From Nitrososphaeria archaeon (GTDB taxonomy: Archaea; Thermoproteota; Nitrososphaeria; Geothermarchaeales; JDFR-13), in contig JALWXN010000004.1 in NCBI GenBank assembly GCA_027078545.1, positions 142,737 through 206,736 on the forward strand: a DNA stretch of 64,000 nt, in the 5' to 3' direction. Below the pieces are notes generated by a model. The model had not been told where the DNA came from and did not search any database. It saw only the letters and a program-made list of their open reading frames with translations. A program made the position numbers and the translations under genes. Each line of letters begins with the position of its first letter. Position 1 is the stretch's first letter. Below are positions 5,808-56,708 of the stretch, piece after piece.

Positions 5808-5815
5808 ATGCATAG

Positions 5816-9920: not shown

Positions 9921-10034
9921 TTTGTGACGTCATCATTATAAACAGTGATGCGGCTCCTCAATACGGAAATAATAAGATGTGGACCTGGATCACTAGACCA
10001 GCAAAAAGATCCGCATGTCTATATTCTCTCGCGA

Positions 10035-10439: not shown

Positions 10440-10467
10440 TGAGTATGGAATAATTGATTAGGTGTAG

Positions 10468-35929: not shown

Positions 35930-36592
35930 ATGGCTATGGAGCGTCTAGTGGATCATCTAGTCGCCATAGGGGCTCTGAAGACGGAGAAGTATATCGAGGT
36001 CTTTAGACGGCTGGATAGGAAGCTATTCATGTGGCCCGGATATGAGGACGAGGCATATCTAGACTCGCCCTCACTCCTCGGGGAGACTGGCCAGACCATA
36101 TCGGCTCCACATATGCATGCATACTACCTCGAGTATAGCGGCGTGTCTGAGGACGACGTAGTCATGGAGGTGGGTGTAGGGAGCGGCTACCTATCAGCCC
36201 TGATAGGCCTATTGATAAAGATGTATGGGGGACGGGGCCACGTATATGGCCTGGAGTATGACCCCCGTCTATACAGCTTCGCAAGGACAAACATATCTAG
36301 GGTGGGCCTCGAGGACCAGGTAACCGTTATACTGGCCAATGGCTACTGGGGCTGGCCACCTAGGGAGGAGAGGGAGCTCTACGACGTCATACTGGTATCA
36401 GCAGCAGTTGATACCCCGCCTCAATACCTACTGGCCCAGCTCAGGGAGGGTGGGCGGATGGTAATACCGGTCGGCCCAGCCCTATACCAGGAGCTCAGGC
36501 TATACATGAAGAGGGGTGGAGCCATAGAGTATAAACCCCTCTTCCCCGTATCCTTCGTGAAGATGAAGGGCTATGAAGGAGGTAGTCTTTAG
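35930..36592 (+). CDS. pcm: protein-L-isoaspartate O-methyltransferase
   Basis: 'VMEVGVGSGYLSA' SAM motif. Confidence 0.85.
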   Translation: MAMERLVDHLVAIGALKTEKYIEVFRRLDRKLFMWPGYEDEAYLDSPSLLGETGQTISAPHMHAYYLEYSGVSEDDVVMEVGVGSGYLSALIGLLIKMYGGRGHVYGLEYDPRLYSFARTNISRVGLEDQVTVILANGYWGWPPREERELYDVILVSAAVDTPPQYLLAQLREGGRMVIPVGPALYQELRLYMKRGGAIEYKPLFPVSFVKMKGYEGGSL

Positions 36593-36992
36593 GGCAAGGG
36601 GGCATCCAAACATATCGGCAACACATAGATCCACATTCGAGATAACCAGGGAAGACTTCCTAACCCCCAGGGGAGACTGTATAATAGGAGTCGAGGCAGA
36701 GCTGGCCTGCAGAGACCTACCAACCACGTTCAAAGAGGCTCTACGAAGTGGAGAAGCCTCACTAGTGATAGAGCTGGAGGTGGAGGGTGTAAAGGAGGTA
36801 GTCAATGCGAGGGGCTCACCCAGGCTGAGCCTAGCATCACCCACATCAATGGTCATCAGAAGGTCGGACTACATAGACGACAGGACACTAGCTATCAAGG
36901 CGGACAAGGCCGCCAGAGACCTCAGCAGAGAACTGGTAAACAGGCTAAAGAATCGAGACGCAACCCTCACCATAAGGCTCAGGATCATTTAA
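36573..36992 (+). CDS. conserved archaeal protein (DUF371-like)
   Basis: ORF, 139 aa; weak family assignment. Confidence 0.4.
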   Translation: MKEVVFRARGHPNISATHRSTFEITREDFLTPRGDCIIGVEAELACRDLPTTFKEALRSGEASLVIELEVEGVKEVVNARGSPRLSLASPTSMVIRRSDYIDDRTLAIKADKAARDLSRELVNRLKNRDATLTIRLRII

Positions 36993-37056: not shown

Positions 37057-37154
37057 GGGCCCGTGGCCTAGCCTGGTCAGAGCCCCTGCCGGGCGGCTAG
37101 GGCGCCCGGCTGATAACCGGGAGGTCGCCGGTTCAAATCCGGCCGGGCCCACCA
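37057..37154 (+). tRNA. tRNA-Ile(GAU) with ~20-nt non-canonical intron between D-stem and anticodon stem (about 25/26)
   Basis: GGGCCCG acceptor, D-arm GCCT-AGCCTGGTCA-GAGC, insert CCTGCCGGGCGGCTAGGGCG, anticodon arm CCCGG-CTGATAA-CCGGG, T-arm, CCA. Confidence 0.7.
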
Positions 37155-37354
37155 ATTAATTCCTTTTTGGTCGCGCTCCTTTTCTTCCCATTCCTTCCCG
37201 AGAAGTTAATCAATATTCGGAAAAATGTAAAGAAAAAGAGGACGTGATGGGTTACAAGTATTGCATAAGTCATGCCTCCCGGGGGGCGCTGAGTTAAGTA
37301 AAAATAGACTGCAATCAGTTTATAACGATTGTGACTTAACTTACATTTTTAAGC

Positions 37355-37948
37355 TTGAAAGGGAGAATGAGATTTGTAAGTGAAATGAGTCTCGGAAGAG
37401 AGACGCAACTTATGACCTATAAAGATAAGGGTAAAACCATTAGGCCTATAAGCGTAACAATGATTAATGACAGTTTTATAGTTGCAGTCTATAAGGGTAA
37501 GAAAAGCGCAGCAGATATAGTAGTAAGATATAGACAAAGATTAAAAAACGGTGGTTGGTCTAGGATTCGAACTCCAAAACATATACACTGGACTGTGGAC
37601 ATTTTATTGAAGATGCTAAAATGTGACAAACTTACTAAAAAATTTCTAGACGAGCTAATAAAAATCTGGGAGAAAGATGTTCATCCACTATCAGAAGAAG
37701 ATGTAAAGAAATTAGACCTTAATCAATTGGTAATCAGTAAGAAAGATATATTGGAAAGGTTTAAAGAACTAAATAGATATGGAGAATATAGTGTTGATTT
37801 CCTCTTATTAATAGCAGAACTTCTCATGTTACAAGAAAAAACAAACTATCCAAGTGGAAAACTATTCCTCATATTGCTAAAAAAACTAAAGGAAGGTGAA
37901 GATCTGTTCAGTATTGTTCAAACAGCTTCACTTCGAAGACTTCAGTGA
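37355..37948 (+). CDS. hypothetical protein in the AT-rich islet
   Basis: ORF in low-GC DNA; no motif. Confidence 0.3.
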   Translation: MKGRMRFVSEMSLGRETQLMTYKDKGKTIRPISVTMINDSFIVAVYKGKKSAADIVVRYRQRLKNGGWSRIRTPKHIHWTVDILLKMLKCDKLTKKFLDELIKIWEKDVHPLSEEDVKKLDLNQLVISKKDILERFKELNRYGEYSVDFLLLIAELLMLQEKTNYPSGKLFLILLKKLKEGEDLFSIVQTASLRRLQ

Positions 37949-38098
37949 GGATAATTGTTGCTTCCTCTACTAGTTAAAAAGGCCAAGCCTGAATAGTTAT
38001 GTTAAAGGCCCTCGTTACAAAAACTGAGTTTATGGTTTCGACTACATTTACTTAGTCTATGAATGGCTCGATAAGGCAGCCTAGTTGTCTATGTTTAA

Positions 38099-39784
38099 TT
38101 ATTTAATTATATTTGCTAGTATGCCCGCTAACAGACTCGTTCTTTTCTCTATTTCTTCTCCGCTCCATTTCTTATATTTATCAACTAAGTATTTGGTGTT
38201 TAATGCTAAACCCGATTTTTTATAAGTCTCTTCCTTTTCATTATAGTTTTTAGAACCTAACTTGATGTTTTCATCCTCCTCTAAGAGAGTTAAATTTCCT
38301 ATTTTATAAACTAATTCAGGATTATCTAGTTTATCACGACGACTAATTGGATAAATATGCTCTAGTGTCAGGTCTTTTGAGGGGCGTTTCGTGTTCTCAG
38401 AGCTCTCAATTTCAAACAGCAAAGCTTTAGCTAATCTTTCATGTTTTCTTTCCTTAAATAAGAATTTAAGTAAACTTTGCTTAAACTCGTTATCCTCTGG
38501 AAATAGGTTACGCAGTTCTTGGTAATATTTTTCAGTGTTATTATTCTCAATAAGCTCTATCAATCGTCGTATTTTCTTTTCAAATTCACTTGGTGATTTA
38601 GAACATATTGTTCGTCTTATAAGTGTATAATATAAAGGTTTTAGTTTCTTCTCTATCTCTTTGTCGTTTATATTTCCTTTAGGATCTGCATATTTTTCAA
38701 GAAGAGCAAACATAATGGGAATGTGTTGTCTTATACCGATGGAGAAAAGAGTAGTTAAATAATCCACTATTGTCTCTTTCTTCCAATATATTTTCGATGG
38801 TGCTGAGATGTTCCTGTAATATATATTAAGAAATCGTTCTAGTTCGTCGAAAAATTGTCTGACATCATCAAGATTATTAATCCTCTTTTTTATTTCTTTA
38901 AAAATATCCTTTTCTCTTACAAAGTCATATTTGTATATAAGATAATATCTTATAACATATTTCAGTTCTCTACTTTCATATTCTGAGAGGAAGCTATTCC
39001 ACTTTTCATCAAAACGTATAACCTGTGTTTGATCCTCAGAATTACTTAGAATACCTAGAAGATAGTTTTTTATAAGGTCTAGTGGAGCTAAGGTAAGCCC
39101 TCTAGCGTTTAAAGTTTCGAAAATTAGAAAAGCGTTATGTTCAGAGTCCACTTCTACTACTACAGTAATTATATTCTCTTTTATCCCGATGTCAACAATC
39201 TTACTTAACCATTCTTCAATTTTCTGATTATTTTTCTTTATTTCTCTATCTATAATTTTATAGGACTCTACATAAGTTGTTAACATATTATTCCATGATG
39301 TATATTTTTTATCGTTTAGAAGTTTTCGCAGTTCCCTTTCCTTTTTCTGTAAAGAACCTTCTTTGATTGTTATAATTTTTTCGTAGAATTGTCTATCAAT
39401 CTTATTAGGAATGACACTTAGTTTCTCATTGCCTACAACATCATGATGACGCATAAGAAACAGTGAATGGATCCTATTGCTAAATTTTGTATAATTCATA
39501 TTAATAAGGTAGTCTCTTAGAGCAGCCAAGAAGAGACAGGTAGTTATTAGTCGTTGTTGACCATCGATTACAACATATTTATTCCTACCCTTTGATGTTA
39601 GAACCATCGGACCAATAAAATATTCCTCTCTAGACCCTTGCTCTATGATATCTAAAATAAATTCCTTTGCTTCCTCTTTCCAAGAATAGCTTCTCTGATT
39701 AATAGGAACTTCAAAATCTCTTGTCTGCAACAACTGTCCTAATGTTTCACTCCTAACATCTGTTACAACTTTTTTGTTACTCAT
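38099..39784 (-). CDS. GmrSD-like DUF262 (ParB/Srx-like NTPase) + DUF1524 (His-Me finger nuclease) defense protein
   Basis: 'KYVVIDGQQRLITT' DGQQR motif at the N-terminus; C-terminal 'TLEHIYPIS...NPELVYKIGNLTLLEE' H..N..H-like motif; low-GC context. Confidence 0.75.
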   Translation of the reverse strand: MSNKKVVTDVRSETLGQLLQTRDFEVPINQRSYSWKEEAKEFILDIIEQGSREEYFIGPMVLTSKGRNKYVVIDGQQRLITTCLFLAALRDYLINMNYTKFSNRIHSLFLMRHHDVVGNEKLSVIPNKIDRQFYEKIITIKEGSLQKKERELRKLLNDKKYTSWNNMLTTYVESYKIIDREIKKNNQKIEEWLSKIVDIGIKENIITVVVEVDSEHNAFLIFETLNARGLTLAPLDLIKNYLLGILSNSEDQTQVIRFDEKWNSFLSEYESRELKYVIRYYLIYKYDFVREKDIFKEIKKRINNLDDVRQFFDELERFLNIYYRNISAPSKIYWKKETIVDYLTTLFSIGIRQHIPIMFALLEKYADPKGNINDKEIEKKLKPLYYTLIRRTICSKSPSEFEKKIRRLIELIENNNTEKYYQELRNLFPEDNEFKQSLLKFLFKERKHERLAKALLFEIESSENTKRPSKDLTLEHIYPISRRDKLDNPELVYKIGNLTLLEEDENIKLGSKNYNEKEETYKKSGLALNTKYLVDKYKKWSGEEIEKRTSLLAGILANIIK

Positions 39785-40291
39785 TAGAATAACCTCCTAA
39801 CGACTCTGAATATGTTACCTACTAGCTTGTAATATCTGTTAAATATTTGCTTCAATTACATATATAAGTCGATTCCTTACACAAACACTGGGAAGAAAGT
39901 TCAAAGACTATATTAATTCCTTTATGTAAATAATTATTTCGAACAAGTTCCTCATTTAAGAACATGGGTGGGAAACCTATTATAAACCTGAGTTTGCAAC
40001 ACTTTGTCTTATAGGTGTTCAGCTACGAGAAATATAGTATATTATATGCATATGAACATCTCCATTGACAATAGTGATAATAATGATGTAAAAGTTTGAA
40101 TGAATCTTCAAGAACATCCAGGACTTTCAGATAAATTGTGAAGGGGGAAAGGGTAGTCTGATATATATTCTACTTTCAATTAGATACTTCCAACCAAGAC
40201 TTATCTATAACAAGTTAAAAAAATCAATGAAGAGGCCATAGAAAACCGGACAAACTTTATAAAACCGGAGTCTGAAAATATAGAGTTGACT

Positions 40292-40389
40292 GCCCCGGTG
40301 GTGTAGCCCGGCCAGCATACCGGCCTGTCGACAAGTATCCACGGGCGGTCAGCCGGTGGACCCGGGTTCAAATCCCGGCCGGGGCGCCA
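40292..40389 (+). tRNA. tRNA-Asp(GUC) with ~20-nt anticodon-loop intron
   Basis: GCCCCGG/CCGGGGC acceptor, G73, anticodon stem CCGGC/GCCGG enclosing CTGTCG+intron+A, CCA encoded. Confidence 0.75.
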
Positions 40390-40459
40390 AAAGTCCTAAT
40401 TATAACGGAAGGATTGAGAATACCTATGAGTCTAGCCCCTAGGATCTCTGATTCATTTT

Positions 40460-41860
40460 TCACTCTTCTACTCGGGTTATGGAGTTTCTTATTATCTTTA
40501 TAAGCTCATTATCCGTCACCCGTTCGTCTCTCAGGTTCTTGAAGTCGTATCTGGTGATGATCAGTTTGTTTATGCCTCTTCCATCTATTATGAATTCGAA
40601 CTCGAATTGGGGGTGGTCATCAAACACCTCGTTGAAGACCCCCTCTAGATAGGGATATATAAGAATAGTATTGGGTATAGGGGCTTTCCCATCATCCTTG
40701 CCCTCCAAGACCCTATTTACCTTATGAGCCAGCCTCGAGTAGACATACATCTGCCTGACATCATTAACATCTATCGGGATCTTGTCATACCCCTCCTTAT
40801 CCTGGTCCTTAGATCCCTTCAGCTCTTTGTACTTTACATCCACTACCAGTAGGATCCTACGGTTCTTGGATACCGTGATGTCCGGATACTGTGCAAAGAC
40901 TTCACTGTCCCTATTGATGCTCATGTCTCGTAACAGCTTACCGATGGGCCTTTGATGCACCACGTCATACCCAGTGAGCTCACGCTTCAGCAGTTGATAG
41001 ATGAATCGTTCGAAGAGATCGTTCATCTTGATGAAGAATCCATAGACCTCCCTGCCCCTCCCCACCTCTATCCTGTGGAGGAGTAGTCTCGCCAGATTGT
41101 ATGGCCTCCTAAACCTCTCATTTAACCTGTTGAAGACCGGTTCCCGATTAGTTGCTAACACCTTTGTATCCCTGTACATTGTTACTTCGCTCAACATATG
41201 TGATATCAGCTTTGCATAGGTCACCGTATCCCTATGTCTAGACATCTGTTCACATAGAGCGGCTGCCAGACGGAGAACCCTATTTAGTTCGTTATCCATG
41301 GACAGTGTATACTGCTCCTGTGTAAAGGTTATGAGCTGGTGTGGAAGCTTCCTAATCTGTCTAGAGACCAGTAGCTTCCCCCTAAGGAATGGCTCATCAT
41401 AAACCCTCCTAATGTATCTACGGTATACCCCGTTCTGAAGCTCCCTATAGAGCATGAACGTATATAGATACATTAGAACCTCGTGCAACGCCCTCTCAGA
41501 CACCCCTCTCTTCCTGAGCATAGCATGGGACTCCTTCAACTCCAGCTGTAGCGCTGTGTCGAGCATCCTAATGAACGCGATAGCCTCATCCTGTGTATCG
41601 AACAACCCTCTATCCCTAGCCCTCTTAAAAACCTTGGGGAATATGGTGAGGTTTATCCCATCTACATGTCCAAACCCGACATACTGGTTAGTATAGATGT
41701 TGACCTCTCCCCCCAGCCCAAGCTGGATCCTCAATATTCTCTCACGATTGATTACAACCCTCTCCTCTATCAGGGCTAACTCCCTCTCCGATACTCCTAG
41801 CTCCTCCTTCTTAAACGTAGCTCCTGGCTCGTAGATCGCTAAATCCTTAGCTCTCCTCAT
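40460..41860 (-). CDS. mcrC: McrC-like PD-(D/E)xK nuclease partner of McrB
   Basis: Start overlaps the mcrB stop; C-terminal 'YPDITVS...ILLVVDVKYKEL' D...D.K motif. Confidence 0.6.
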   Translation of the reverse strand: MRRAKDLAIYEPGATFKKEELGVSERELALIEERVVINRERILRIQLGLGGEVNIYTNQYVGFGHVDGINLTIFPKVFKRARDRGLFDTQDEAIAFIRMLDTALQLELKESHAMLRKRGVSERALHEVLMYLYTFMLYRELQNGVYRRYIRRVYDEPFLRGKLLVSRQIRKLPHQLITFTQEQYTLSMDNELNRVLRLAAALCEQMSRHRDTVTYAKLISHMLSEVTMYRDTKVLATNREPVFNRLNERFRRPYNLARLLLHRIEVGRGREVYGFFIKMNDLFERFIYQLLKRELTGYDVVHQRPIGKLLRDMSINRDSEVFAQYPDITVSKNRRILLVVDVKYKELKGSKDQDKEGYDKIPIDVNDVRQMYVYSRLAHKVNRVLEGKDDGKAPIPNTILIYPYLEGVFNEVFDDHPQFEFEFIIDGRGINKLIITRYDFKNLRDERVTDNELIKIIRNSITRVEE

Positions 41861-43845
41861 CAGCCCTCCTCTTCTTTTCTGGCCTGTGACGAGCCGCTAC
41901 CCTTCAACCTCTCCCGGAATTTTTCAAGACCTTCTATATTGTTGAGCTCTTCCATCCACTCTCTTGGATCCTTCAGATGGTACTTACCACCCCTTTCACT
42001 GAGGAAAACACTTGATAGGCCTCCCAATACAACGGCGAGGTCATCCCACCTATTATAGAAATACTCCTGTAAAAGAGGCATTATCCTATACACCCATACC
42101 TCTTTAAACGTCTCAAATGCATCATTTTCGTTTTTGGATCCAGCTAAGACCTCGAGGAAATAGCTATGCCCAATCCTATGATCCCTATCCAAGTAACTCT
42201 CAATTCTCTCGTTCAAAACCTCCAGGATCTCCTTCAGATGCTTTGCCAGCTCCTCCTTCTCCTCGCCAATCTTTCTAGCCACTTCTACCAGGGTATCGGG
42301 ATCGGGGGGTATCTCGAGGAATGCAAACCGTCTCCTCAATGCATAGTCGACAAGGGCGATACTCTTATCCGCAGTATTCATGGTACCGATAATATAGAGG
42401 TTTGGAGGAACCGCGAATAGCTCCTTTGAATAGGGCAGGGTTACCAACACGTAATTCTCTCCAAACAGCCTCTTATCCATCTCCAGGCAAGTAATCAACT
42501 CACCAAGTATCCTAGCCAAGTCACCCCTGTTTATCTCATCAATAACCAGATAGAACTTGCGAACAGACTCACCTGATTCGTCATATTTTTTCTTATACTC
42601 ATTAAGATCATCTGGGTTTTTAAGAATCTCACTAACGCCTTTCTTATAGCCTAGATCTTCAAGTAGGGCTTCTAAGGCCCTACGAGCCAGATCCTTAAAC
42701 ACACCATCCTCAACCTTATACATTATTCTACCCTTTTCATCGGTCACGGCTCTATAGCCCTCAACAAACTCCTCATAACTATATGATGGATGGAAAGTGA
42801 CAACCTCATAGAGATCTTTATTGCCACAAGTCACCCCATCCACGTATTTCAGAGCAAGAAAAGTCTTACCCGTACCAGGAGGACCATACAAAACAACCTG
42901 TCCATACATCTTTAGAAGATTATCAATATCTGAATATCTTTCCTCCTCTCTTAAGTTATCCTTCTCTTGATCATTATGGTTGCCATTGTGGTTACCCTCT
43001 TCCTTCGAGTGTTGGCCATTATTGTGTGTATAGAGATATATGAAACCAGAAAACCAAACAGTTTTGTATTTCACCCTACAAATCATATTTTTATTCAGTA
43101 TTTCGTTGAAATTCAAATAATGAATTTCCATAAGATATTTTCTCACATAAATTTCGGGTTCATTTTCAATTTCTTTCACCTTTGGAAGATGGTTACATGT
43201 TTTTGAAAAGGCTATGGCATTACTATCATATGGACAAAATATCTTCGGATTAATCAAAAATAATCCTTGAGTTAATTTTGGTACTCTTATCCCAGGTTCT
43301 GATCGTATTTCCTTAAATCTTTTAGAAAAGTAGCTTATGTCATTAACAAGATCCTCTATGGTATCATAATTACTTATTCTTTCCCCAAATTCCCATAACT
43401 TGGGGACGATGTCCTCGATGTTATTGCTATCGGGATCAAAGAAGAATCTTCGCTTTGGGGAGGGTTGTAATGGCTGCCCGGTTCCAACTGGTAAATCATA
43501 TTTTTTGCTAGTTCTTTTAATGCGTATCTCTTCTGGACGGATAGGTTTTTTACTTCTTCCTGCAGTATGGATAGAATAAATTATCGTAAATGGATCAATT
43601 AAATATTTTCCTTCTTTACTCTTAAACTTCTCCTTTTCCATTTTAATGCTTACTATTGATGTTAGTTCATCCACTAGTTCTTCATAAAACAATGCTTCTT
43701 CCTCGGGATCGGTCTTGACCTTCCTCCATTCGTCGAACAAATCTTTCCAGAACTCTAAGTATTTCTCGACCCAGTTATCATTATAACCTTTCATTAATGC
43801 CCTAATTTTTTGGTCGTGTTTCTTAATGCATTCCTCTAATGGCAT
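41860..43845 (-). CDS. mcrB: McrB-like AAA+ GTPase (type IV restriction) with novel ~300-aa N-terminal domain
   Basis: 'LYGPPGTGKTF', 'FHPSYSYEEFVEGYR', 'VIDEINRGD', 'IIGTMNTADKS...ALRRRFAF'. Confidence 0.85.
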   Translation of the reverse strand: MPLEECIKKHDQKIRALMKGYNDNWVEKYLEFWKDLFDEWRKVKTDPEEEALFYEELVDELTSIVSIKMEKEKFKSKEGKYLIDPFTIIYSIHTAGRSKKPIRPEEIRIKRTSKKYDLPVGTGQPLQPSPKRRFFFDPDSNNIEDIVPKLWEFGERISNYDTIEDLVNDISYFSKRFKEIRSEPGIRVPKLTQGLFLINPKIFCPYDSNAIAFSKTCNHLPKVKEIENEPEIYVRKYLMEIHYLNFNEILNKNMICRVKYKTVWFSGFIYLYTHNNGQHSKEEGNHNGNHNDQEKDNLREEERYSDIDNLLKMYGQVVLYGPPGTGKTFLALKYVDGVTCGNKDLYEVVTFHPSYSYEEFVEGYRAVTDEKGRIMYKVEDGVFKDLARRALEALLEDLGYKKGVSEILKNPDDLNEYKKKYDESGESVRKFYLVIDEINRGDLARILGELITCLEMDKRLFGENYVLVTLPYSKELFAVPPNLYIIGTMNTADKSIALVDYALRRRFAFLEIPPDPDTLVEVARKIGEEKEELAKHLKEILEVLNERIESYLDRDHRIGHSYFLEVLAGSKNENDAFETFKEVWVYRIMPLLQEYFYNRWDDLAVVLGGLSSVFLSERGGKYHLKDPREWMEELNNIEGLEKFRERLKGSGSSQARKEEEG

Positions 43846-44386
43846 CTTAAAATAAATTATAACACCCTATTTCCTTAAATAGATGTTTTAGGGTCTCTAA
43901 CAACTAGCTGATTATACAATAGTTTTCAGTTTTCACCGCTATTCTTAAGAAATGTTGCATGGGAGAAAAAATTCGCTATTAGTTCTTATGTTGAGTTGTT
44001 TAGTTGCTTTCTATAGACAGGATGTGGTTCAAGTGAGTATATGAGATCATCTTAATTTATATTTTATTGAATTAGTATGTTTAACTGATAACATTATATG
44101 TTTCATTTACTCAAATAGTTCTCGGAAGCTATTCATGGAGAATATCCATTATATCATCGTTTCTGTCATATATAGTCACTCGTTATATAGCGTGAGGTTG
44201 TCTTTATAACAACAGGTTAGAGATAACGGTCCTCCTGTTTTTGAATGTCTAGGAACTAGCTCTCAGCTTTGTAACACGTGTACCATACACAGATCTGGAG
44301 GGTGCATAGCATTAAGCAATGCATGTGGAGATTTCTAAGTCCGATGTAAGTTTTAAAAGTTTCTTGTGGGGTAGAATATTGGTGGG

Positions 44387-44543
44387 CCCCCCGTAGCTCA
44401 GTGGCTAGAGCGGCCGGCTGTAGCTGTCTCGGCCCACGGATGACTGGGCGTATGCCTTGGGTTGAGTCCGTGGCGGCCGGCGGAGACAGGGCGATGTCCC
44501 CTCCAGCGGCAGGTCGTGGGTTCAAATCCCACCGGGGGGACCA
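44387..44543 (+). tRNA. tRNA-Tyr(GUA) with C1-G72 and two introns (~52 nt after position 37 and ~29 nt in the variable/T-arm region)
   Basis: CCCCCCG/CGGGGGG acceptor with A73, D-arm GCTC-AGTGGCTA-GAGC, anticodon stem GCCGG...CCGGC enclosing CTGTAG, T-arm GTGGGTTCAAATCCCAC, CCA. Confidence 0.55.
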
Positions 44544-44630: not shown

Positions 44631-47039
44631 GTGTCTAGCCAGGTGGATTTCAGGCCGAGGCTTAGGGATAAGCGTTGGGACAAGTCTAGGGAGGAGGAGC
44701 TCCTTAGGAAGTGGGTGGAGGAGGGTCGGTACGAGTTTAGGCTGGATCCTTCTAAGCCAGTATTCTCTATAGATACTCCCCCGCCATATGCCAGTGGGAC
44801 GTGGCATGTGGCTGCTGCCGCCCACTATGTGCAGTTCGATGTGTTCGCTAGGTACTATATGATGAAGGGGTATAACGTCCTCTTCCCCATGGGGATCGAT
44901 AGGAATGGCCTCCCGGTCGAGATGAAGGTTGAGCAGGAGTATAGGGTCCGGGCGAGGGATGTGGAGAGATCCGAGTTTATAAGGCTCTGCCGAGAGCTCC
45001 TGGACAGGTATGAGAAGTATATCTTGGAGGTTATCCGTAGAACCGGTATGCTGGCCAACTATCTCGAGCCCTATAGGACTGATGCCCCCGACTATAGGGC
45101 GCTTACCCAGGCCACCTTCATAGAGCTGTGGAGGAGGGGTCTGATCTATGAGGATGACCGGCCCACTATATGGTGCCCCGTATGCTACACCCCCATAGCC
45201 GAGGCGGAGATCAACTATGTAAAGAGGATGGGTAAGCTGTACAAGGTGAGGTTCCCACTGAAGGACGGCTCAGGATACCTAGTCATAGCGACCACCAGGC
45301 CGGAGCTGATAGGCGCCACGGGCGCCGTCCTATTCCACCCTGACGACGAGAGGTATAAGAAGTATGAGGGTAGGGAGGTGGTTATCCCGCTCTATGGATA
45401 TACAGTCCCGGTGCTGGCCAACCCCATCGTGGATCCTGAGTATGGGACCGGCGTCATGATGCTCTCAAGCTATGGAGACCTGGACGATGTAAGGCTCTTC
45501 AGGGAGCTGGGCCTGAAGCCCAGGGTACTCATCACCCCTGACGGCAGGATGAACAGTCTGAGCGGTAGGTATGAGGGGATGTCCGTCGAGGAGGCTAGGG
45601 AGGCCATTGTGAAGGATCTTGAGAGGGAGGGCTATCTAGAGGGTGTGGAGGAGGTTGAGCAGAACGTACCCACATGCTGGAGGTCTAAGAATCCTGTCGA
45701 GTTCATAAATGTGAGGGCCTTCTACCTGAAGCAGCTGGAGTATAAGGATGCTATCCGGAGGATAGCCGATGAGATAGTCTTCTACCCCGAGTTCCATAAG
45801 CAGATCCTACTGAACTGGCTAGACTCGATCTCTATAGACTGGGCCATAAGTAGGGATAGGGTCTATGGGACCGAGATCCCTATCTGGTACTGTAAACGCT
45901 GTGGCCACCCGAATCTCCCGGAGCCTGGGAGGTACTACGTCCCCTGGAGGGATCCGCCCCCCTTCGATAAGTGTGAGAAGTGTGGGCACAACGAGTTTAG
46001 GGGTGAGGAGAGGACCTTCGACACCTGGATGGACTCCAGCATCTCCTGCCTCTACATAAGTGGATATATGAGGGATAGCCAGCTATTCGAGAAGGCCTTC
46101 CCAGTATCTGTCAGGCCCCAGGGAATCGACATAGTCAGGACGTGGCTCTACTACACCCTGCTCAGGGTCTACCAGCTCACCGGTAAGCCGGCCTTCAAAT
46201 ATGTGAGGCTCTCAGGGATGGGTCTCGACGAGAAGGGTAGGCCGATGAGTAAGAGCCTCGGCAACGTCGTGGAGCCCATACCCATACTGGATAAGTGGGG
46301 GGCCGACGTCTTCAGGCTATGGGCCTGTGGAGACACTAAGCTGGGCTACAACTACCGCTTCTCTGAGAATAGGCTCGTCCCGGCCCAGCAGTTCATAACC
46401 AAGCTGTGGAACATAGCCAGGTTCATATCCAACTTCCCCGACACTAGTGGGGAGCTCGGGGTGGACGGCCTGATAGAGGCTGACAAGCATATGATAGAGG
46501 CTCTGAACGAGGTTATCGACCTGGCTAATGAGGAGTACTCCAGGCTGGACAGCTTCGAGACGGTAACCAGGACTAGGCACTTCACCTGGGAGGTCTTCGC
46601 ATCCAACTATCTAGAGCTGGTTAAGAAGCGGGCCTACAACAGGGATGGTGAGTTCACCCTGGAGGAGCAGAGGTCTGCATGGGCAGCTCTACACATTGTC
46701 CTGAAGAATATCCTCCTGATCCTACACCCCGTGATACCCTTCGTGACCGACTATATATGGAGGGAGCTCTACGGCGCCTCTGCCCTCGACCAGCCCTTCC
46801 CCGAGAGGATGGATACCGGGCTTGGGAGGAGCCTTATACCCATGGTTATGGAGCTGAACTCGGCGATATGGAGGTATAAGGAGATGAATGGGCTGAAGAG
46901 AAAGGACCCGATATCCCTGGTGGCTATCCCTAGGGAGCTGGAGCCCTTCGCCAAGGATATCAAGGCTCTCCACAACATTGGCGAAGTGGTTATAGACGAC
47001 TCGATAAGGAGTGTAGAGGAGGTTAGGATAGAGAGGTAG
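44631..47039 (+). CDS. valS: class I aminoacyl-tRNA synthetase, most likely valyl-tRNA synthetase
   Basis: 'PPPYASG', editing-domain-like 'WCPVCYTPIAEAEI', KMSKS as 'MSKSLGN', C-terminal 'LHPVIPFVTDYIW'; the HIGH region is atypical (TWHVAAAAHY). Confidence 0.65.
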   Translation: MSSQVDFRPRLRDKRWDKSREEELLRKWVEEGRYEFRLDPSKPVFSIDTPPPYASGTWHVAAAAHYVQFDVFARYYMMKGYNVLFPMGIDRNGLPVEMKVEQEYRVRARDVERSEFIRLCRELLDRYEKYILEVIRRTGMLANYLEPYRTDAPDYRALTQATFIELWRRGLIYEDDRPTIWCPVCYTPIAEAEINYVKRMGKLYKVRFPLKDGSGYLVIATTRPELIGATGAVLFHPDDERYKKYEGREVVIPLYGYTVPVLANPIVDPEYGTGVMMLSSYGDLDDVRLFRELGLKPRVLITPDGRMNSLSGRYEGMSVEEAREAIVKDLEREGYLEGVEEVEQNVPTCWRSKNPVEFINVRAFYLKQLEYKDAIRRIADEIVFYPEFHKQILLNWLDSISIDWAISRDRVYGTEIPIWYCKRCGHPNLPEPGRYYVPWRDPPPFDKCEKCGHNEFRGEERTFDTWMDSSISCLYISGYMRDSQLFEKAFPVSVRPQGIDIVRTWLYYTLLRVYQLTGKPAFKYVRLSGMGLDEKGRPMSKSLGNVVEPIPILDKWGADVFRLWACGDTKLGYNYRFSENRLVPAQQFITKLWNIARFISNFPDTSGELGVDGLIEADKHMIEALNEVIDLANEEYSRLDSFETVTRTRHFTWEVFASNYLELVKKRAYNRDGEFTLEEQRSAWAALHIVLKNILLILHPVIPFVTDYIWRELYGASALDQPFPERMDTGLGRSLIPMVMELNSAIWRYKEMNGLKRKDPISLVAIPRELEPFAKDIKALHNIGEVVIDDSIRSVEEVRIER

Positions 47040-49106: not shown

Positions 49107-49195
49107 GGAGGGGTTCCCCTAGCCTGGCCAACGGGGCGCGGTTCAGGCCCGCGTGGCGTAGGCCTTCGTGGGTTCAAATCCCACCCCCTCCACCA
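49107..49195 (+). tRNA. tRNA-Leu(CAG), intron-free
   Basis: Same acceptor and D-arm as the 5686 copy; anticodon arm CGCGG-TTCAGGC-CCGCG; long variable arm; CCA. Confidence 0.8.
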
Positions 49196-49380: not shown

Positions 49381-49734
49381 ATGAAAATGTCTAGCCGGAA
49401 CTACAAGGTATTCGCGTTGATCCTGGGCAACGCCCTACTAGTCCTAGCAATATTCCTAGAAACCAGCTTCAGACCCGAAGCCGTCATAGTATTCTCATCA
49501 TACTTCGTAATATCATCCATACTATCCAGGTACATAGAAAGCCCTGGATCCCTATTCCACATCACAGTCTCCCTCCTCGTACTATCAATCGTAATATACA
49601 ACAGGCTCATCGGAGACACGAGAAACATACACATAGACATCGCAGTCTTATCAACATACATGGCAGTCACAACAGCAAGAGAAATATACCACGAAGCAAG
49701 GAAGAGACGGCAAACCAACAAACCAAAGCCATAA
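49381..49734 (+). CDS. small membrane protein (3 TM helices)
   Basis: Hydrophobic ORF. Confidence 0.35.
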   Translation: MKMSSRNYKVFALILGNALLVLAIFLETSFRPEAVIVFSSYFVISSILSRYIESPGSLFHITVSLLVLSIVIYNRLIGDTRNIHIDIAVLSTYMAVTTAREIYHEARKRRQTNKPKP

Positions 49735-49967: not shown

Positions 49968-51068
49968 GTGTATAAGCAAGGTATTCCCCTAATACTTATA
50001 GCAATACTCGTAACCGGGTTAACTCCCATCCAGGCCGTGTCGATTGATGATGATCCTCCCGTAAGGGTGTTGCTGAAGTATATTGATGAGGGCTTCACCC
50101 ATATAGGGGATGGGGTCTATGTCATCGACTACATGGAATATCTAAAGCCTCGTAACAGGACTGTATTAGTAAATGGCGAGAAGCTCCCCCGCGAAGCGGA
50201 GGAGTTCATGAGTAACCACGTACTGAATTCCCAGATCATGAAGATGTATGAAAAATACGTGTCTAGCATAAAGTCCCTAGTGGTCACGGCCCTCGAGATC
50301 GAGCAGAGCGTCACCGTGATACCCACGATACACCACTACAACGAGAAGAAGGATATAGTCCTCCTGAGATACCGTATAAACCTCTTCATGGACGACAAGT
50401 ATAGAGACTTTGTAGAGGCCAAGATAAAGGAGCTCTACCCAGTCCTGATCAGACACTTCAGGGCATGGTCGTCAAAGGCAGCTGAACAGTTCTACTACAT
50501 GACGGGGATAGACATCAGCGGCGAGTATAGGAACGAGACCATCATAGTCCTCATAGCAGACATGAAGACGGAGCCCCACTACATAGTGGGGAGGGAGGTA
50601 TATATCCCCAAGGGCTCCAGAGTAGTCGAGGACCCGATCAACGTCACCCACCTAAAAGAGGTGCTGAGAGACGCCATGAATAGATGGCCAGAGCTGGTGG
50701 GCCATGACTACTCATTCGGAATACTCAGGATATTCCTCACAGCATACGACAACCCCCCAACAGAGGAGATACTGGCGAAGGCAACCATGCTGAGGAGGGA
50801 GATACTGGGGAGGGACGACCTACCCATACAGGTAGTCCTCTTCAGAAAAATTCGCATCACCGACATAGAGATAGCCCCATACAGACCAGCAGAGACATCG
50901 CTACAGCCCCCCACAGACCCTGAGACCCAGCCCCAAACCCAGGAACAGCAAGACCCAGCGGCCGAGGAAGACCCGAGCCCAATCACCGCCATAGCCATAA
51001 CAGCCACCACAGCCACGATACTAGCAGCACTAACCCACATACTGAGACGCATCAGGAGAACAGGGTAG
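49968..51068 (+). CDS. secreted surface protein with Pro/Thr/Gln-rich linker and C-terminal membrane anchor
   Basis: N-terminal signal peptide; 'PPTDPETQPQTQEQQDPAAEEDPSP' linker then 'ITAIAITATTATILAALTHILRRIRRTG'. Confidence 0.5.
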   Translation: MYKQGIPLILIAILVTGLTPIQAVSIDDDPPVRVLLKYIDEGFTHIGDGVYVIDYMEYLKPRNRTVLVNGEKLPREAEEFMSNHVLNSQIMKMYEKYVSSIKSLVVTALEIEQSVTVIPTIHHYNEKKDIVLLRYRINLFMDDKYRDFVEAKIKELYPVLIRHFRAWSSKAAEQFYYMTGIDISGEYRNETIIVLIADMKTEPHYIVGREVYIPKGSRVVEDPINVTHLKEVLRDAMNRWPELVGHDYSFGILRIFLTAYDNPPTEEILAKATMLRREILGRDDLPIQVVLFRKIRITDIEIAPYRPAETSLQPPTDPETQPQTQEQQDPAAEEDPSPITAIAITATTATILAALTHILRRIRRTG

Positions 51069-51325: not shown

Positions 51326-52824
<1,499 letters not shown>

Positions 52825-52840
52825 AGGTGTTCTGGGTGGT

Positions 52841-52880: not shown

Positions 52881-53300
52881 TTTGTTATGTTGTTTGTTGT
52901 GCTATTGTTTTGATTGTTGTTTCTAGGTGTTTGTTGAGTTGTTGTGTTGTTTTTGGTGGGTTGGTTGTTTCTATTCTGTTTTTTCGGGTTTGTTTGTAGT
53001 TGTGGGGTTTTAGTGTTTTTTTGAGTTTTTGTAGGGTTTTTTGTTTGTTGGTTTCGATTCTTATTATGTATCCTTGTGGTTCGTCGTAGATCATTAGGGT
53101 TATGTGTGTGTCTGGCTGGGGTTTGTAGTGTGCCTCTATTTGTGGCCATCCCCAGTTCTGTGTTGATTCTAGGATTGGTGGTAGGTTGTTTTTGAGTGAT
53201 TCTTCGAGTATTTTTCGGGCTATGTCTAGGTATGTCCTCATCTTCTCCCTCTTTGTTTGTTGGCGTGGGCGGGTGTGTCTTGTTATTCGTTCTTGTGTTA
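52881..53300. repeat. extreme strand-asymmetric low-complexity tract (plus strand G+T rich, almost no A, few C; degenerate TTG/GTTT-like repeats)
   Basis: Direct reading, e.g. 'gttttgttatgttgtttgttgtgctattgttttgattgttgtttctaggtgtttgttgagttgttgtgttgttttt'. Confidence 0.8.
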
Positions 53301-53820
53301 CTTGTTTGAGTGTGTCTATTCCTTGTCTGACTAGGTTTTTTATGTGGGTTGTGTCGAGGGTTTCTAGTCTGTATCTGAGGATGGTGAATGCTACTCCGTC
53401 TGGGTGGATCTGTTCCTCTATGTCTAGTCCTTGTTGCCGTAGCTTCTCCGCGTTTTTTCTGCGTATGTGGTGGTATTTGAAGGCTTCTGGGTATTTCTGC
53501 ATTAGTTGTTGTAGGAATTCTCCTTTCCATGCTCCTTCCATTGGTTTTACTTCTTCCCATTCCTGGTCTAGGTCGAAGAGGATTGTTTCGAAGATCTTCT
53601 CTTTTGGTGTCTCGAGGGCTAGGATCATGTTGTCCATGTCTATCCAGATGGCTTCTATGGAGTAGTCCTCGATCAGGCTTACGGTTACTGATCGGTGGTC
53701 TATGGCTGTGGCTATCTCTGGGGGTATGGTCTCGTCCTCTAGTACTAGCTCGGTTATGACCCTCATCAGGTCGTATGCCTTTGTTAGGCTCCTCATAACT
53801 CCCCCCTCTTCTCCTCCCAA
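52885..53820 (-). CDS. hypothetical protein, paralog of 54557..55486; the C-terminal third is a Q/T/K/N/P low-complexity tail encoded by the T-depleted strand (possibly decaying)
   Basis: Shared 'YPEAF(K/R)...LR(Y/L)RL' segment with the 309-aa ORF; the tail lies in the tract where stop codons cannot occur. Confidence 0.4.
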   Translation of the reverse strand: MGGEEGGVMRSLTKAYDLMRVITELVLEDETIPPEIATAIDHRSVTVSLIEDYSIEAIWIDMDNMILALETPKEKIFETILFDLDQEWEEVKPMEGAWKGEFLQQLMQKYPEAFKYHHIRRKNAEKLRQQGLDIEEQIHPDGVAFTILRYRLETLDTTHIKNLVRQGIDTLKQVTQERITRHTRPRQQTKREKMRTYLDIARKILEESLKNNLPPILESTQNWGWPQIEAHYKPQPDTHITLMIYDEPQGYIIRIETNKQKTLQKLKKTLKPHNYKQTRKNRIETTNPPKTTQQLNKHLETTIKTIAQQTT

Positions 53821-53929
53821 TGTAAGATGTAATCTTGGGGTATGGCTGTTTTAACTTATTTCTTGACTAGGTTATCTGTGTCTGGAGAGTGTATTGGTTA
53901 AATTTTGATTTAGATATCTATTTTTTGGA

Positions 53930-54595
53930 ATGAGGCTTGCTTTACTGTCTCTCGCTTTGGGAGCCATATTTCTATATGTTGTCCTTAGTTATCCTCTGGT
54001 CTATCCTCTAGCTGAAAAAGATGGTAGAAGGGTATGTCTCGACTTAGAGGCGCTGGAGATAGATATGACGATTATCGTTGTTGGTGAGACTAGTGCCTAT
54101 GTAGATGGGGTTATAGAGGTGTATATAGATAGGGGTATGGGGGTTGTACGTCTAGAGCCTGATGATCTAGATGATTTTGACTGGATGGAGGTTGATGGGC
54201 TCGGCATAGTCGTGTTCTATGGCGATTGGCTGGCCAGCCATGTGTCAGACCCGAGGATAGCAGGCTTTATTGCTGAAATCGAGTTTGATAGGATAGGTCT
54301 TGTAGCGATCGATGGCAATACATCTAGCCTCTTTACCCTTCTGGATATGGTGGGTATCTATAAACTTGTACAAGAGGGTGGTGTAAAGTGGAACCCTGCA
54401 TATTCAAATCCTCATGTGGTGGGGTATATGCATCTTGAGGGGGTGATGCCTAATGGAAGCATATACTACTTCCCCTCGATCTTAATGTCGAATAGTAGGC
54501 TTGAGATAGATGCGGCTATCGCGATTGCCAATTGGATGGCTGGTGAAGACTACGAGTCAGAGCTGGACTGTGAATGGGTCCAGCTCCCGGGGTAG
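53930..54595 (+). CDS. secreted/membrane-anchored hypothetical protein
   Basis: N-terminal hydrophobic 'LALLSLALGAIFLYVVLSY'. Confidence 0.4.
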   Translation: MRLALLSLALGAIFLYVVLSYPLVYPLAEKDGRRVCLDLEALEIDMTIIVVGETSAYVDGVIEVYIDRGMGVVRLEPDDLDDFDWMEVDGLGIVVFYGDWLASHVSDPRIAGFIAEIEFDRIGLVAIDGNTSSLFTLLDMVGIYKLVQEGGVKWNPAYSNPHVVGYMHLEGVMPNGSIYYFPSILMSNSRLEIDAAIAIANWMAGEDYESELDCEWVQLPG

Positions 54596-55486
54596 TGTAT
54601 CCCTAATCCACTGCCTCAGTCTTAGTGTTCCTATGAATACTTCTCTGTATAGTAGCTTCTCTGTATGGAGTGTCTCTTTATACCTGCCCGTCTCTAGTAG
54701 TTCCCGGCGTTTCTCGGGTGTCGCGGGCCTCATCACTACATGGTATTTATGGCTGTCCATCTCTATCTCTAGGGCTTTGACCAGCCTGCTCTTCTCCGTT
54801 CTGATATGGATCGCCGTGGGGGTCAGGTTGGATAGGTATACTGCCTGGGGTGTCTCGCCGATCCTGAGTAGGCTCTTCAGAGCAGTCTTCGCGGTCTCGT
54901 ATAGCTCGTCTGTCGTCCTGGTCTCCCCCCTCCTATAGTAGGGATCGGCGGCGTCTCGATCCCTACCCATCTCCCTACACCATCTCTGGAATGCCTCGGT
55001 GGCCTCCCTTGTCCTTGCGAGTATCTCGCCCGGCCCCCACCTGGCTATACGGAGCTTTAGCCTCGTATATGTATAGCTGTTCCGATCCACAATCGTCTCC
55101 AGCCTAATATTCATCTCCCTCGAGACTTTCTGAGCCGCCTCACGGGACATATCTAGATGTCTGAAGGCCTCGGGATACCTCTCCCTAAGGCTCTCTAGGG
55201 TGCTGGGGCTACTCCAGTCATCCACGTCCGAGAACTCGTCCTCCGCCCCGGGGTATAGCTGGGCTATCATCTCGGCTAGCTCATAGCCACCGCTCCTCGC
55301 CTCTAGCAGCCTGCCCTGCCGCCTAAGCTCCAGCTCCTCCAGCCTATCATCATCTAGGGTGATGAGGACCCTCCCCTCGTTTATGGATATGGAATAGTAT
55401 GGGGCGAATATCGTCTCCCCGATTAGGTGCTTGGCGGCCAGATACGACATATCCAGGTTCTCCCGGATCTTCCCATGTCTAGTCAT
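54557..55486 (-). CDS. hypothetical protein, last gene of the TGT-like operon
   Basis: Start overlaps the stop of the upstream 408-aa gene by 8 nt. Confidence 0.45.
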   Translation of the reverse strand: MTRHGKIRENLDMSYLAAKHLIGETIFAPYYSISINEGRVLITLDDDRLEELELRRQGRLLEARSGGYELAEMIAQLYPGAEDEFSDVDDWSSPSTLESLRERYPEAFRHLDMSREAAQKVSREMNIRLETIVDRNSYTYTRLKLRIARWGPGEILARTREATEAFQRWCREMGRDRDAADPYYRRGETRTTDELYETAKTALKSLLRIGETPQAVYLSNLTPTAIHIRTEKSRLVKALEIEMDSHKYHVVMRPATPEKRRELLETGRYKETLHTEKLLYREVFIGTLRLRQWIRDTLPRELDPFTVQL

Positions 55487-56705
55487 CTCGATCCCTCCAA
55501 AGGATTATGTATCCCTTATTACTCCTATGGTCGTAGCCAATTATTACGACAATTCTGGATAGTTTTTCCACCCGCCGATTCAGTAGGTCCTTTCCAACTA
55601 CTCGTGTCAGCAGATCATAGTATTCACTGACTTGTTTAACGGCATTCTTTAAGGATCTCCTCCCTTCCCTTTCTTCAAACCTATACTTTATCTCTGCTAC
55701 ATACATCTCATTCTCGATAAATCCTATTATATCGGGTCTGCGATTAGCGAGGATCTCCCTTAATACATCTTTATAGGGATCGTGTTTAGTGGGCTCAACA
55801 TACACTTCACGTATTCCGATGCTGTACAGGAAATTGATGGCTAAACTCTTCCCCAGGACGTCTCTTTTAGTCATGAACCCATCATTCCTTCCTTCTAGAC
55901 GGTCTTTATGACTCTCCCTCATTATGGTGTCGGCTAGACTTCTAAGATTTTCATCCCTTATCCTGTATGTATACCTCTCTACTTCCAAGCCCGCTATTCT
56001 GGTTTTCTCTTTTTCGAGTATCTCCAACGAATCCGAAATAGGTTTAAAAAGCTTCTTCTTAACATTCTTCTCGACGTCAAGAGACGTCTTCTTAAGCTTC
56101 TTTCCATGTCTGTAGTATAGATCGATGCTATATAGGGAGCTCTCTAACTTCTCGACTCTGTAAACTGCTGGTCTAGATCCTCGCCTAGGTTCTACTATCC
56201 ATAAATTAGCTTTTCCAAGTTTCATCTGAAACTTGAGTGTTACTACTTGACCTGCACGTGTTTTGCTGGGATACTCAGCTAGTAGTGCCACTCCACATCC
56301 TCTCTCCTTTTCATAGCTCCATCTCTCAGTGGATAGATATACGTCTCCCATCTTGACTACTATCTGGTTTATGTTGATGCTTAGAACTATTGGTAAGGTT
56401 TTCCTTATCGCTTCGTTAAAGTCTTTTATAAAATTGTAGACGTTGAAGGGTTTGATATTTACCCAATATTCCCCAGGCTTAAGGCCGCTAAACATTATTT
56501 CCTTCTCTTTCTCGCCCCCAAGGTGTCTCCAGTAGTAGATATACTGTTCTCCATCGTGGATCTCTAATTTGAAGACATCTGTACCCAGCATGTCGCGGGC
56601 ATATTCAAATGTCAGACCGTGAATAACCAGTGTAGGGTATTTACCTCTCCTAATGACCGCGTTTGCAAGTATCTCAATGGACTCAGGCCTTATAGTTTCT
56701 CCCAC
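55479..56705 (-). CDS. hypothetical protein with C-terminal PD-(D/E)xK nuclease-like motif
   Basis: 'EVYVEPTKHD...RRPDIIGFIENEMYVAEIKYR' (D325...E338.K340). Confidence 0.5.
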   Translation of the reverse strand: MGETIRPESIEILANAVIRRGKYPTLVIHGLTFEYARDMLGTDVFKLEIHDGEQYIYYWRHLGGEKEKEIMFSGLKPGEYWVNIKPFNVYNFIKDFNEAIRKTLPIVLSININQIVVKMGDVYLSTERWSYEKERGCGVALLAEYPSKTRAGQVVTLKFQMKLGKANLWIVEPRRGSRPAVYRVEKLESSLYSIDLYYRHGKKLKKTSLDVEKNVKKKLFKPISDSLEILEKEKTRIAGLEVERYTYRIRDENLRSLADTIMRESHKDRLEGRNDGFMTKRDVLGKSLAINFLYSIGIREVYVEPTKHDPYKDVLREILANRRPDIIGFIENEMYVAEIKYRFEEREGRRSLKNAVKQVSEYYDLLTRVVGKDLLNRRVEKLSRIVVIIGYDHRSNKGYIILWRDRDD

Positions 56706-56708
56706 GGT

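Follow-up and report, generated by a model that had tools for sequence, protein, structure and literature searches.

What brings defence genes into the gaps between tRNA genes, and what keeps or replaces them there, is the question raised by a segment at positions 37155-44386 of a 64,000-nucleotide stretch of DNA (hereafter the window; contig JALWXN010000004.1 of the assembly GCA_027078545.1) from an uncultured, hot-environment Nitrososphaeria archaeon of the lineage Geothermarchaeales. Three tRNA genes, for Ile, Asp and Tyr, alternate here with two islets of DNA, the first carrying a gene for a GmrSD-type enzyme and a small gene that we call orf197, the second a McrB-McrC gene pair. A reading made from the letters only (the sequence-only reading below) had suggested that this DNA was inserted into a tRNA gene cluster and subsequently lost its mobility genes, or that it was acquired by another route. 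We consider it likely that conserved core genes and the tRNA array frame a defence hotspot of the replacement type here, with two slots. Slot 1 would originally have held a gene for a NucS_C-like nuclease, swapped in this strain for a 3.1-kb cassette with 31-33% guanine plus cytosine (GC), and McrBC would have resided in slot 2 since before the sampled lineages diverged, evolving faster than its flanks and being lost in one lineage.

Two slots in a conserved frame

The frame of the locus consists of housekeeping genes. On the left side, the genes for FttA and PCMT precede a DUF371 gene (36573-36992, forward strand; Pfam DUF371, 1e-52), which adjoins tRNA-Ile upstream in every relative examined, with nucleotide identities of 75-98%. 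The right side is made up of the genes for valyl-tRNA synthetase (ValRS) and aRF1. The former (44631-47039, forward strand) is a class I aminoacyl-tRNA synthetase gene with the Pfam domains tRNA-synt_1 and Anticodon_1, read as ValRS from these domains and its length; it shows 85-95% nucleotide identity in the contigs L169, L173, L162 and L002, and its protein is 98% identical to that of a metagenome-assembled genome (MAG) labelled 'Candidatus Geothermarchaeota archaeon'. Between the two flanks lie, all on the forward strand, tRNA-Ile(GAU) (37057-37154), the left anchor of slot 1, tRNA-Asp(GUC) (40292-40389), which divides the two slots, and tRNA-Tyr(GUA) (44387-44543), the right anchor of slot 2; Rfam matches and the anticodon loops GAU, GUC and GUA bear out the positions and identities that the sequence-only reading had assigned to them. 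The cargo of slot 1, islet 1, spans 37156-40230 (3,075 bp, 31-38% GC, with breakpoints located by comparing the window with L168 and L169 in blastn and in alignments), and that of slot 2, islet 2, spans 40390-44374 (3,985 bp) and comprises the McrBC operon with an AT-rich upstream spacer. Apart from these four genes, the segment contains no open reading frame (ORF) of at least 60 amino acids, save for frames overlapping the genes or the tRNAs.

Nine related contigs, all of them from metagenomes, were retrieved by using the DUF371 flank and McrB homologues as queries, and the order DUF371, tRNA-Ile, slot 1, tRNA-Asp, slot 2, tRNA-Tyr, ValRS is kept wherever these contigs reach; a scan of JGI metagenomes with ValRS returned no close relatives. 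What differs is the cargo; this is variable accessory defence DNA that sits inside a tRNA cluster and lacks mobility genes. The window and L001 (100% nucleotide identity in DUF371) have orf197 and GmrSD in slot 1 and McrBC in slot 2. L168, which comes from another JOHN19-1 sample (DUF371 98%), has a 163-nt spacer in slot 1 and McrBC at 96% nucleotide identity in slot 2, and L183 (DUF371 92%) a 148-nt spacer and McrBC at 85-88%. The slot 1 of L169 and L170 (DUF371 93%) is occupied by a gene for a 326-amino-acid NucS_C-like protein of the PD-(D/E)XK type, and their slot 2 by an unrelated 123-nt spacer with no McrBC. NucS_C-like genes likewise fill slot 1 of L182 (DUF371 92%), whose contig ends before slot 2 is seen, of L171 (DUF371 93%), which ends at tRNA-Asp, of L174 (DUF371 75%), where the contig also ends, and of L173 (DUF371 75%, ValRS 85%), where slot 2 holds McrBC at about 72%. 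L172, which groups with L169-L171 (DUF371 93%), ends directly after DUF371 and shows neither slot. Finally, L162 (97.3% identical in 16S rRNA, DUF371 not covered) ends in tRNA-Asp and carries McrBC at 72-75% with apparent frameshifts.

None of the eight relatives whose contigs span the site contains islet 1 DNA, and this includes L168 with its 98%-identical flank. The four NucS_C-like genes located at L169 10646-11626, L173 10723-11628, L174 8334-9326 and L182 3022-3747 point to the earlier occupant. Their products (301-330 amino acids) have a C-terminal PD-(D/E)XK domain (PF01939, 29.9 bits, with a gathering threshold of 24) behind an unannotated N-terminal part of approximately 200 residues, and GC at third codon positions (GC3) in these genes is 0.47-0.48, below that of the host; they may represent another nuclease-type defence gene. 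The seemingly empty slot 1 of L168 and L183 is what remains of the NucS_C-like gene after its inner part was deleted, with the leader and the last approximately 60 nt kept, and this one deletion scar is common to the 98% (L168) and 92% (L183) lineages. Polymorphism reaches down to the level of strains, as L182 and L183 share an identical DUF371 protein and differ in slot 1.

The history of slot 2 is of a different kind. Five lineages have McrBC, full-length and colinear, in the interval from tRNA-Asp to tRNA-Tyr, at 72-96% nucleotide identity, and the divergence of McrBC scales with that of the flanks while being somewhat higher: 96.4% identity against 98.1% for the flank in L168, 85-88% against 92% in L183 and about 72% against 75-85% in L173. 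The L173 proteins are colinear with those of the window, with amino acid identities of 60% for McrB, including its N-terminal domain, and 70% for McrC. These sequences are most simply explained by a common ancestor that already carried McrBC at this site, with a single later loss in the L169 lineage. A recent insertion of islet 2 is contradicted by this distribution together with the near-native composition of McrC described below. The observation that the sequence-only reading had named as refuting it, the same genes in place in related genomes, was thus made for islet 2, and the genes of islet 1 are absent from the relatives. Split McrB and McrC ORFs occur in L162 at 9247-12390 (254+363 and 112+334 amino acids), and McrB fragments in L183 at 2408-3474, reflecting either decay of the system or assembly frameshifts.

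In three independent contigs, the start of L002 and the ends of L162 and L168 correspond to window positions ~44614, 40340 and 43047, respectively, i.e. to borders of the hotspot or to the inside of McrB. Such contig ends suggest branching of the assembly graph caused by strain polymorphism, and hotspots at which assemblies break may easily be overlooked in MAGs.

Base composition and the age of the two islets

The sequence-only reading had described the whole segment as markedly AT-rich. Measured against the 39 other ORFs of the window (GC 0.507 +/- 0.032, GC3 0.614 +/- 0.068), this applies in full to islet 1, with GC 0.330 and GC3 0.273 for orf197 (z -5.5 and -5.0) and GC 0.310 and GC3 0.265 for GmrSD (z -6.1 and -5.1), and to the intergenic spacers of the segment (31-39% GC). 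It holds in part for McrB (GC 0.396, GC3 0.415; z -3.4 and -2.9) and fails for McrC (GC 0.467, GC3 0.587; z -1.2 and -0.4). Only the slot 1 cargo is therefore strongly AT-rich, deviating by 5-6 standard deviations (SD), McrB being intermediate and McrC native-like. Because it is absent from all relatives and lies 5-6 SD below the background in GC content, islet 1 is a strain-specific acquisition, and it is recent, being confined to one strain and compositionally raw. One locus thus pairs an old, partly ameliorated McrBC with a fresh GmrSD cassette at 31% GC, offering a natural comparison of ages.

Low GC content need not by itself indicate foreign origin, and the genes might instead be native and vertically inherited, their AT-richness stemming from proteins rich in Lys, Asn and Ile or from low expression. 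The native composition of McrC and the inheritance of McrBC at the site across the genus fit this explanation, and GmrSD homologues, too, fall below the GC content of the genomes that carry them (28.7% vs 38% in L165-L167). It is nevertheless refuted for islet 1 by the absence of this DNA from the relative with the 98%-identical flank and from all the others; moreover, a GC3 of 0.27 vs 0.61 is inexplicable by amino acid content, no GmrSD relative exceeds 42% identity among 5.8 billion proteins, and even McrBC is missing from the L169 lineage. As an account of the locus, native origin thus seems to us quite improbable.

Two further features of composition may be mentioned. GC3 within McrB rises from 0.33-0.37 in the first 300 codons (the DUF8425 domain) to 0.49-0.55 in the C-terminal part (motor and lid), with 0.59 in McrC. 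A swap of the N-terminal domain as the source of this gradient was considered and rejected, since the McrB of L173 runs colinear with that of the window (60% identity), this domain included, and L162 aligns there too. The observed-to-expected ratio of GATC sites is 1.55 in the whole window, 1.79 in islet 2 and 0.44 in islet 1, the last value being based on small numbers (four sites).

Breakpoints and the mode of exchange

The borders of both islets can be placed precisely. In comparison with L168, L169, L173 and L174, homology on the left of islet 1 stops at 37155, one base beyond the CCA of tRNA-Ile, and on the right, against L168 and L169, it resumes at about 40223-40231, i.e. 61-69 nt before tRNA-Asp. 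The latter stretch belongs to a conserved block upstream of tRNA-Asp that serves as the right anchor of slot 1 (40231-40291, forward strand, defined by an alignment of the window with L168, L183, L169, L173 and L174). It contains the last approximately 8 nt and the stop codon of the displaced NucS_C-like gene and a TTTATAAAA box, presumed from its TATA-like sequence and position to be the tRNA-Asp promoter. Islet 1 thus replaced the NucS_C-like gene with its 5' leader and left only the very end of it behind, which does not agree with a simple insertion. In islet 2, homology to L169 stops at 40389, with the CCA of tRNA-Asp, and resumes at 44375, 12 nt before tRNA-Tyr. The spacer upstream of McrB (43846-44386, 541 nt, 33.5% GC), in which we found no ORF and no Rfam family match, ends in a conserved region 5' of tRNA-Tyr, its last approximately 12-45 nt, which contains a TTTTAAAA box and aligns with L173 and L169.

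All versions of the locus share perfectly conserved tRNA exons and promoter blocks flanking each slot. We suggest that the exchange proceeds by homologous recombination through these invariant tRNA exons and promoter blocks, without a site-specific integrase, and that the DNA for it would be taken up from related cells. Identity between the window and L168 is uneven inside McrBC (90.8% to 100% per 400 nt), a pattern compatible with recombination, though not diagnostic of it.

The first possibility raised by the sequence-only reading, namely that one or two integrative elements (a virus, plasmid or island) entered the 3' ends of tRNA-Ile and tRNA-Asp and later lost the integrase and the attachment (att) repeats, has several points in its favour. 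Each islet starts at the CCA end of the upstream tRNA, islet 1 is strain-specific and strongly AT-rich, and tRNA genes rank among the classical sites of integration (Williams 2002, cited in both PMC10250203 and PMC10121019). Signs of such an element are nonetheless missing from the DNA. As the sequence-only reading had already noticed, there is no integrase, and we found neither an integrase or recombinase ORF nor a corresponding Pfam match, nor a fragment of an integrase, in 37155-44386 or the neighbouring genes; likewise, none of the ten versions of the locus has a recombinase gene and the nine related contigs contain no mobile-element genes. The partial repeats of tRNA 3' ends that would betray integrase-type insertion were not detected at the islet borders: a direct-repeat search returned only the T-arm shared by the three tRNAs, local alignments gave scores at or below the mean of shuffled sequences plus 2 SD, and a permissive Rfam scan (E <= 1) revealed no additional tRNA-like fragment at or inside either islet. 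In addition, islet 1 removed an earlier occupant, which a simple insertion would have left in place, and islet 2 is older than the split of lineages sharing about 72-85% nucleotide identity, so that any insertion there must be ancient. We therefore judge this scenario unlikely, and acquisition by another route is the better half of the sequence-only interpretation.

A 43-nt exact copy of the 3' end of tRNA-Leu elsewhere in the window (5766-5808) was also considered as an att repeat and rejected, as by eye it is the end of an intron-bearing tRNA-Leu-like gene.

It could also be asked whether islet 1 is a chimera of metagenome assembly, joined via near-identical tRNAs of co-occurring organisms. 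The source is indeed metagenome-assembled, the junctions fall on tRNA genes or close to them, and several related contigs break at the same borders. However, the right junction is situated 61 nt upstream of tRNA-Asp, in lineage-specific sequence with the single-nucleotide polymorphisms of the window itself, and both junctions would need to be chimeric, each with the correct tRNA introns. Furthermore, the arrangement recurs, with an identical GmrSD protein, on a 280-kb ENA metagenome scaffold (JOHN19-1, SAMN10217877) and a 1.14-Mb NCBI contig, which may not be independent assemblies. A chimera is thus hardly credible.

Some points weigh against a replacement-type hotspot driven by homologous recombination. 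Borders exactly at tRNA 3' ends are also produced by tRNA-targeting integrases, and old att repeats could have decayed; the recombination step, like the substrates of the enzymes, is inferred from the comparison of sequences. Several contigs of relatives (L002, L162, L168) end at or near the hotspot, leaving some configurations incomplete, and the NucS_C-like protein, with only 29.9 bits to PF01939 and one weak PADLOC match, is no more than a putative defence protein. Finally, no donor of islet 1 was found by tblastn of orf197 against plasmids and phages or when viral contigs were scanned for both GmrSD and orf197.

Predicted functions of the encoded proteins

GmrSD and McrBC are defence genes, and the NucS_C-like protein and orf197 are only suggestive in this respect. 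The statement of the sequence-only reading that the segment encodes nothing but defence-type genes hence stands for three of its genes, the fourth, orf197, being unannotated, with a family linked to restriction-modification genes. We first discuss the enzymes for which homology allows more specific predictions and then turn to orf197.

The GmrSD gene (38099-39784, reverse strand) is convergent with orf197 and encodes a single-chain protein of 561 amino acids of the HEC-06 type, in agreement with the GmrSD-like DUF262+DUF1524 enzyme recognised before. Its N-terminal DUF262 domain (GmrSD_N, PF03235, 7e-33, residues 16-243) carries the motif DGQQR at residues 74-78, and its C-terminal DUF1524 domain (GmrSD_C, PF07510, 1.7e-18, residues 428-553) the motif EHIYP at 475-479, both motifs being intact; the PADLOC HEC-06 model PDLC04155 matches the protein over its full length (1.3e-89, residues 10-557 of 561). 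HEC-06 is antiphage by experiment, with the DGQQR and EH motifs needed, and the counterparts of the second motif are EHICP in HEC-06 and DHIYP in BrxU (10.1101/2024.01.29.577857). Homology thus predicts a type IV restriction enzyme that would cut modified DNA, with an NTPase domain (DUF262) and an HNH nuclease domain (DUF1524). The closest solved structure is that of a DUF262 protein (9jfl, 8e-17), and the best non-self homologue among 5.8 billion clustered proteins is 42% identical. The window protein resembles HEC-06 and GmrSD (10.1101/2024.01.29.577857; PMC4619093) in the combination of DUF262 and DUF1524, the 561 amino acids and the DGQQR and (E)HxxP motifs. It differs from HEC-06 in being archaeal, in lying outside any Hma system and in being at most 42% identical to other proteins, and from its closest homologues in adjoining a gene of the orf197 family.

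McrB (41860-43845, reverse strand) and McrC (40460-41860, reverse strand) form a pair with an overlapping stop and start, as had been noted, the overlap being one base, TG[A]TG. McrB consists of an N-terminal DUF8425 domain of approximately 270 amino acids and a AAA+ GTPase motor (Pfam AAA_5, PF07728, 7e-16) with the motifs GPPGTGKT (Walker A) and DEINR (Walker B) and the McrB signature loop MNTADKS, all intact; precomputed Pfam assignments are DUF8425 and McrB_lid, and the NCBIfam McrB match (5e-42) remains under the equivalog cutoff. Matches in the PDB, to McrB of Thermococcus gammatolerans (6ut3/6ut5, 1e-78) and of Escherichia coli (1e-40), are confined to the motor domain, and in the N-terminal approximately 270 residues only DUF8425, no characterised reader domain, was recognised; an AlphaFold2 (AF2) model of this domain, built from four sequences, had a mean predicted local distance difference test (pLDDT) score of 46 and was unusable. 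McrC matches Pfam McrBC (PF10117, 1e-49) and NCBIfam McrC (3e-10) and carries PD...VVDVKYK, which reads as a PD-(D/E)xK nuclease motif. By homology, McrB would act as a GTP-driven AAA+ motor whose N-terminal domain reads DNA modification and which recruits McrC, and McrC, a PD-(D/E)XK nuclease, would cut modified invader DNA. In the AAA+ GTPase McrB, the PD-(D/E)xK McrC and the overlapping genes, the system is like McrBC of T. gammatolerans (6ut3/6ut5; PMC7680126) and those in a census of McrBC (PMC10542128). Unlike in the E. coli and T. gammatolerans proteins, the N-terminal domain of McrB is DUF8425, which is without functional annotation, and the signature loop reads MNTADKS in the window and MNTADRS in the relatives P0003 and P0020.

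The most elusive product is that of orf197 (37367-37948, forward strand), a protein of 193 amino acids if translation begins with the ATG at 37367; the ORF as called mechanically starts at a TTG at 37355. It was described as a 197-residue unknown by the sequence-only reading, and indeed has no match in Pfam, NCBIfam, PADLOC or PHROGs. A HMMER search, however, assembled a family of 245 cluster representatives at E <= 1e-3, mostly of 150-200 amino acids, with the conserved motifs RTPKHIHWxVDLLxK and LLMxQEKTN. In one fusion protein the orf197-like part follows a D12 (Dam-type) methyltransferase, in another it precedes a TIR domain, and adenine or N6/N4 methyltransferases are present in four of the four independent neighbourhoods of orf197 relatives that we examined. 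In L175, a D12 methyltransferase gene precedes the orf197-like gene; in the phage-like L177-L180 the order is D12 methyltransferase, orf197-like gene, DpnII and N6_N4 methyltransferase; L181 has a D12 methyltransferase, the orf197-like gene and an N6_N4 methyltransferase, with a MutH-like gene nearby; and in L176 the orf197-like gene lies between fragments of N6_N4 methyltransferases. The confident AF2 model of orf197 (pLDDT 94.3) combines an N-terminal beta-sheet with a helical domain, and Foldseek searches with it found nothing in the PDB and only a marginal match in BFVD.

Based on these associations, we tentatively propose that orf197 belongs, as a stand-alone protein, to a family of defence proteins that is linked to DNA modification and has not been described before, a possibility that is nonetheless less probable than its negation. 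Such proteins would make up a new component of restriction or sensing, and might read the methylation state of GATC-type sites or act as a nuclease responding to it. There is no Dam-type methyltransferase in the 64-kb window, and if the proposal is true, orf197 would work beside GmrSD without a cognate methyltransferase in this archaeon. Two other ideas about orf197 were not borne out: it shows no similarity to the displaced NucS_C-like gene (E = 0.2), of which it might have been a remnant, and a role as a conserved partner of GmrSD is unsupported, the closest GmrSD homologues having no orf197 neighbour.

Relation to known defence hotspots

The locus adds an archaeal case to a kind of organisation that is already known, and its enzymes come from known families. 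It resembles the short defence cassettes, not homologous to one another, that occupy fixed loci in Vibrio and E. coli, as well as the P. aeruginosa (Pseudomonas aeruginosa) core defence hotspots, or cDHS (PMC10250203; PMC10121019), in its conserved core flanks and the tRNA at the border, and further in that close relatives have unrelated cargo or none, in AT-richness and in the breaks of assemblies. Bacterial 'replacement islands' have been contrasted with 'additive' tRNA islands rich in mobile genetic elements (PMC10250203; PMC10121019); the tRNA- or tmRNA-flanked cDHS of P. aeruginosa is of the additive, mobile-element-rich kind, unlike the nine contigs studied here. Other differences from the bacterial hotspots are the archaeal host, the size of the slots (3-4 kb, with one or two genes), the arrangement of two neighbouring slots split by a single tRNA and the stability of the McrBC cargo across the genus. 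With tRNA-targeting integrative elements, so far as they are described in the papers citing Williams (2002), the locus shares accessory AT-rich cargo starting at a tRNA 3' end, and it departs from them in having no integrase, att duplication or tRNA fragment and in the replacement of an occupant.

The logic of bacterial hotspots, with core-flanked sites at which short cassettes are swapped, lost or kept, thus seems to be at work in a barely studied archaeal lineage as well, in slots of unusually small size that have tRNAs as their borders and contain no mobile-element genes. The archaeal HEC-06-type GmrSD, the McrB with a DUF8425 domain and the orf197 family are candidates for experiment.

Intron-bearing tRNA genes and other features of the window

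All three tRNA genes of the locus contain inserts and end with an encoded CCA. Rfam (RF00005) matches tRNA-Ile with 59.3 bits over 37057-37151, with a 27-nt insert in the D-loop; tRNA-Asp with 51.1 bits over 40292-40386, with a 23-nt insert after the anticodon; and tRNA-Tyr with 48.9 bits over 44387-44540, with an 84-nt insert after the anticodon. The anticodon loop of tRNA-Ile reads CUGAUAA. Since the exons are invariant across relatives and all variation is confined to the inserts, the latter fit introns; in tRNA-Tyr, which is conserved in L169, L173 and L162, the differences are likewise all intronic. ARAGORN detects only tRNA-Ile of the three, miscalling it as Ala(ggc) because of the intron at a non-canonical position in the D-loop, and misses tRNA-Asp and tRNA-Tyr. 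Annotation of this lineage based on ARAGORN would hence under-count tRNAs.

Two further intron-bearing tRNA genes are likely at 5690-5808 and 5811-~5935. Both are missed by ARAGORN and by Rfam at the gathering threshold; a weak match to the tmRNA clan is the only signal from Rfam. The first is identical to tRNA-Leu(CAG) (49107-49195) over approximately 25 nt at its 5' end and 43 nt at its 3' end, and has an insert of approximately 35 nt.

An archaeal 16S rRNA gene is located at 51327-52825, with no 23S rRNA gene after it in the remaining 11 kb of the window. Downstream of it, at 52885-58301, are five consecutive ORFs (311, 221, 309, 408 and 530 amino acids) without a Pfam match, including the AT-rich ORF 55479-56705 (GC 0.418, z -2.8), and the bin at 53-54 kb has a strong AT skew of -0.52. 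Between the homologues of the window ORFs 49381-49734 and 49968-51068, the L169 lineage (L169 16923-19675) contains an extra gene for a 209-amino-acid methyltransferase dependent on S-adenosylmethionine (SAM), so that there is another small site of variation some 5 kb away from the hotspot.

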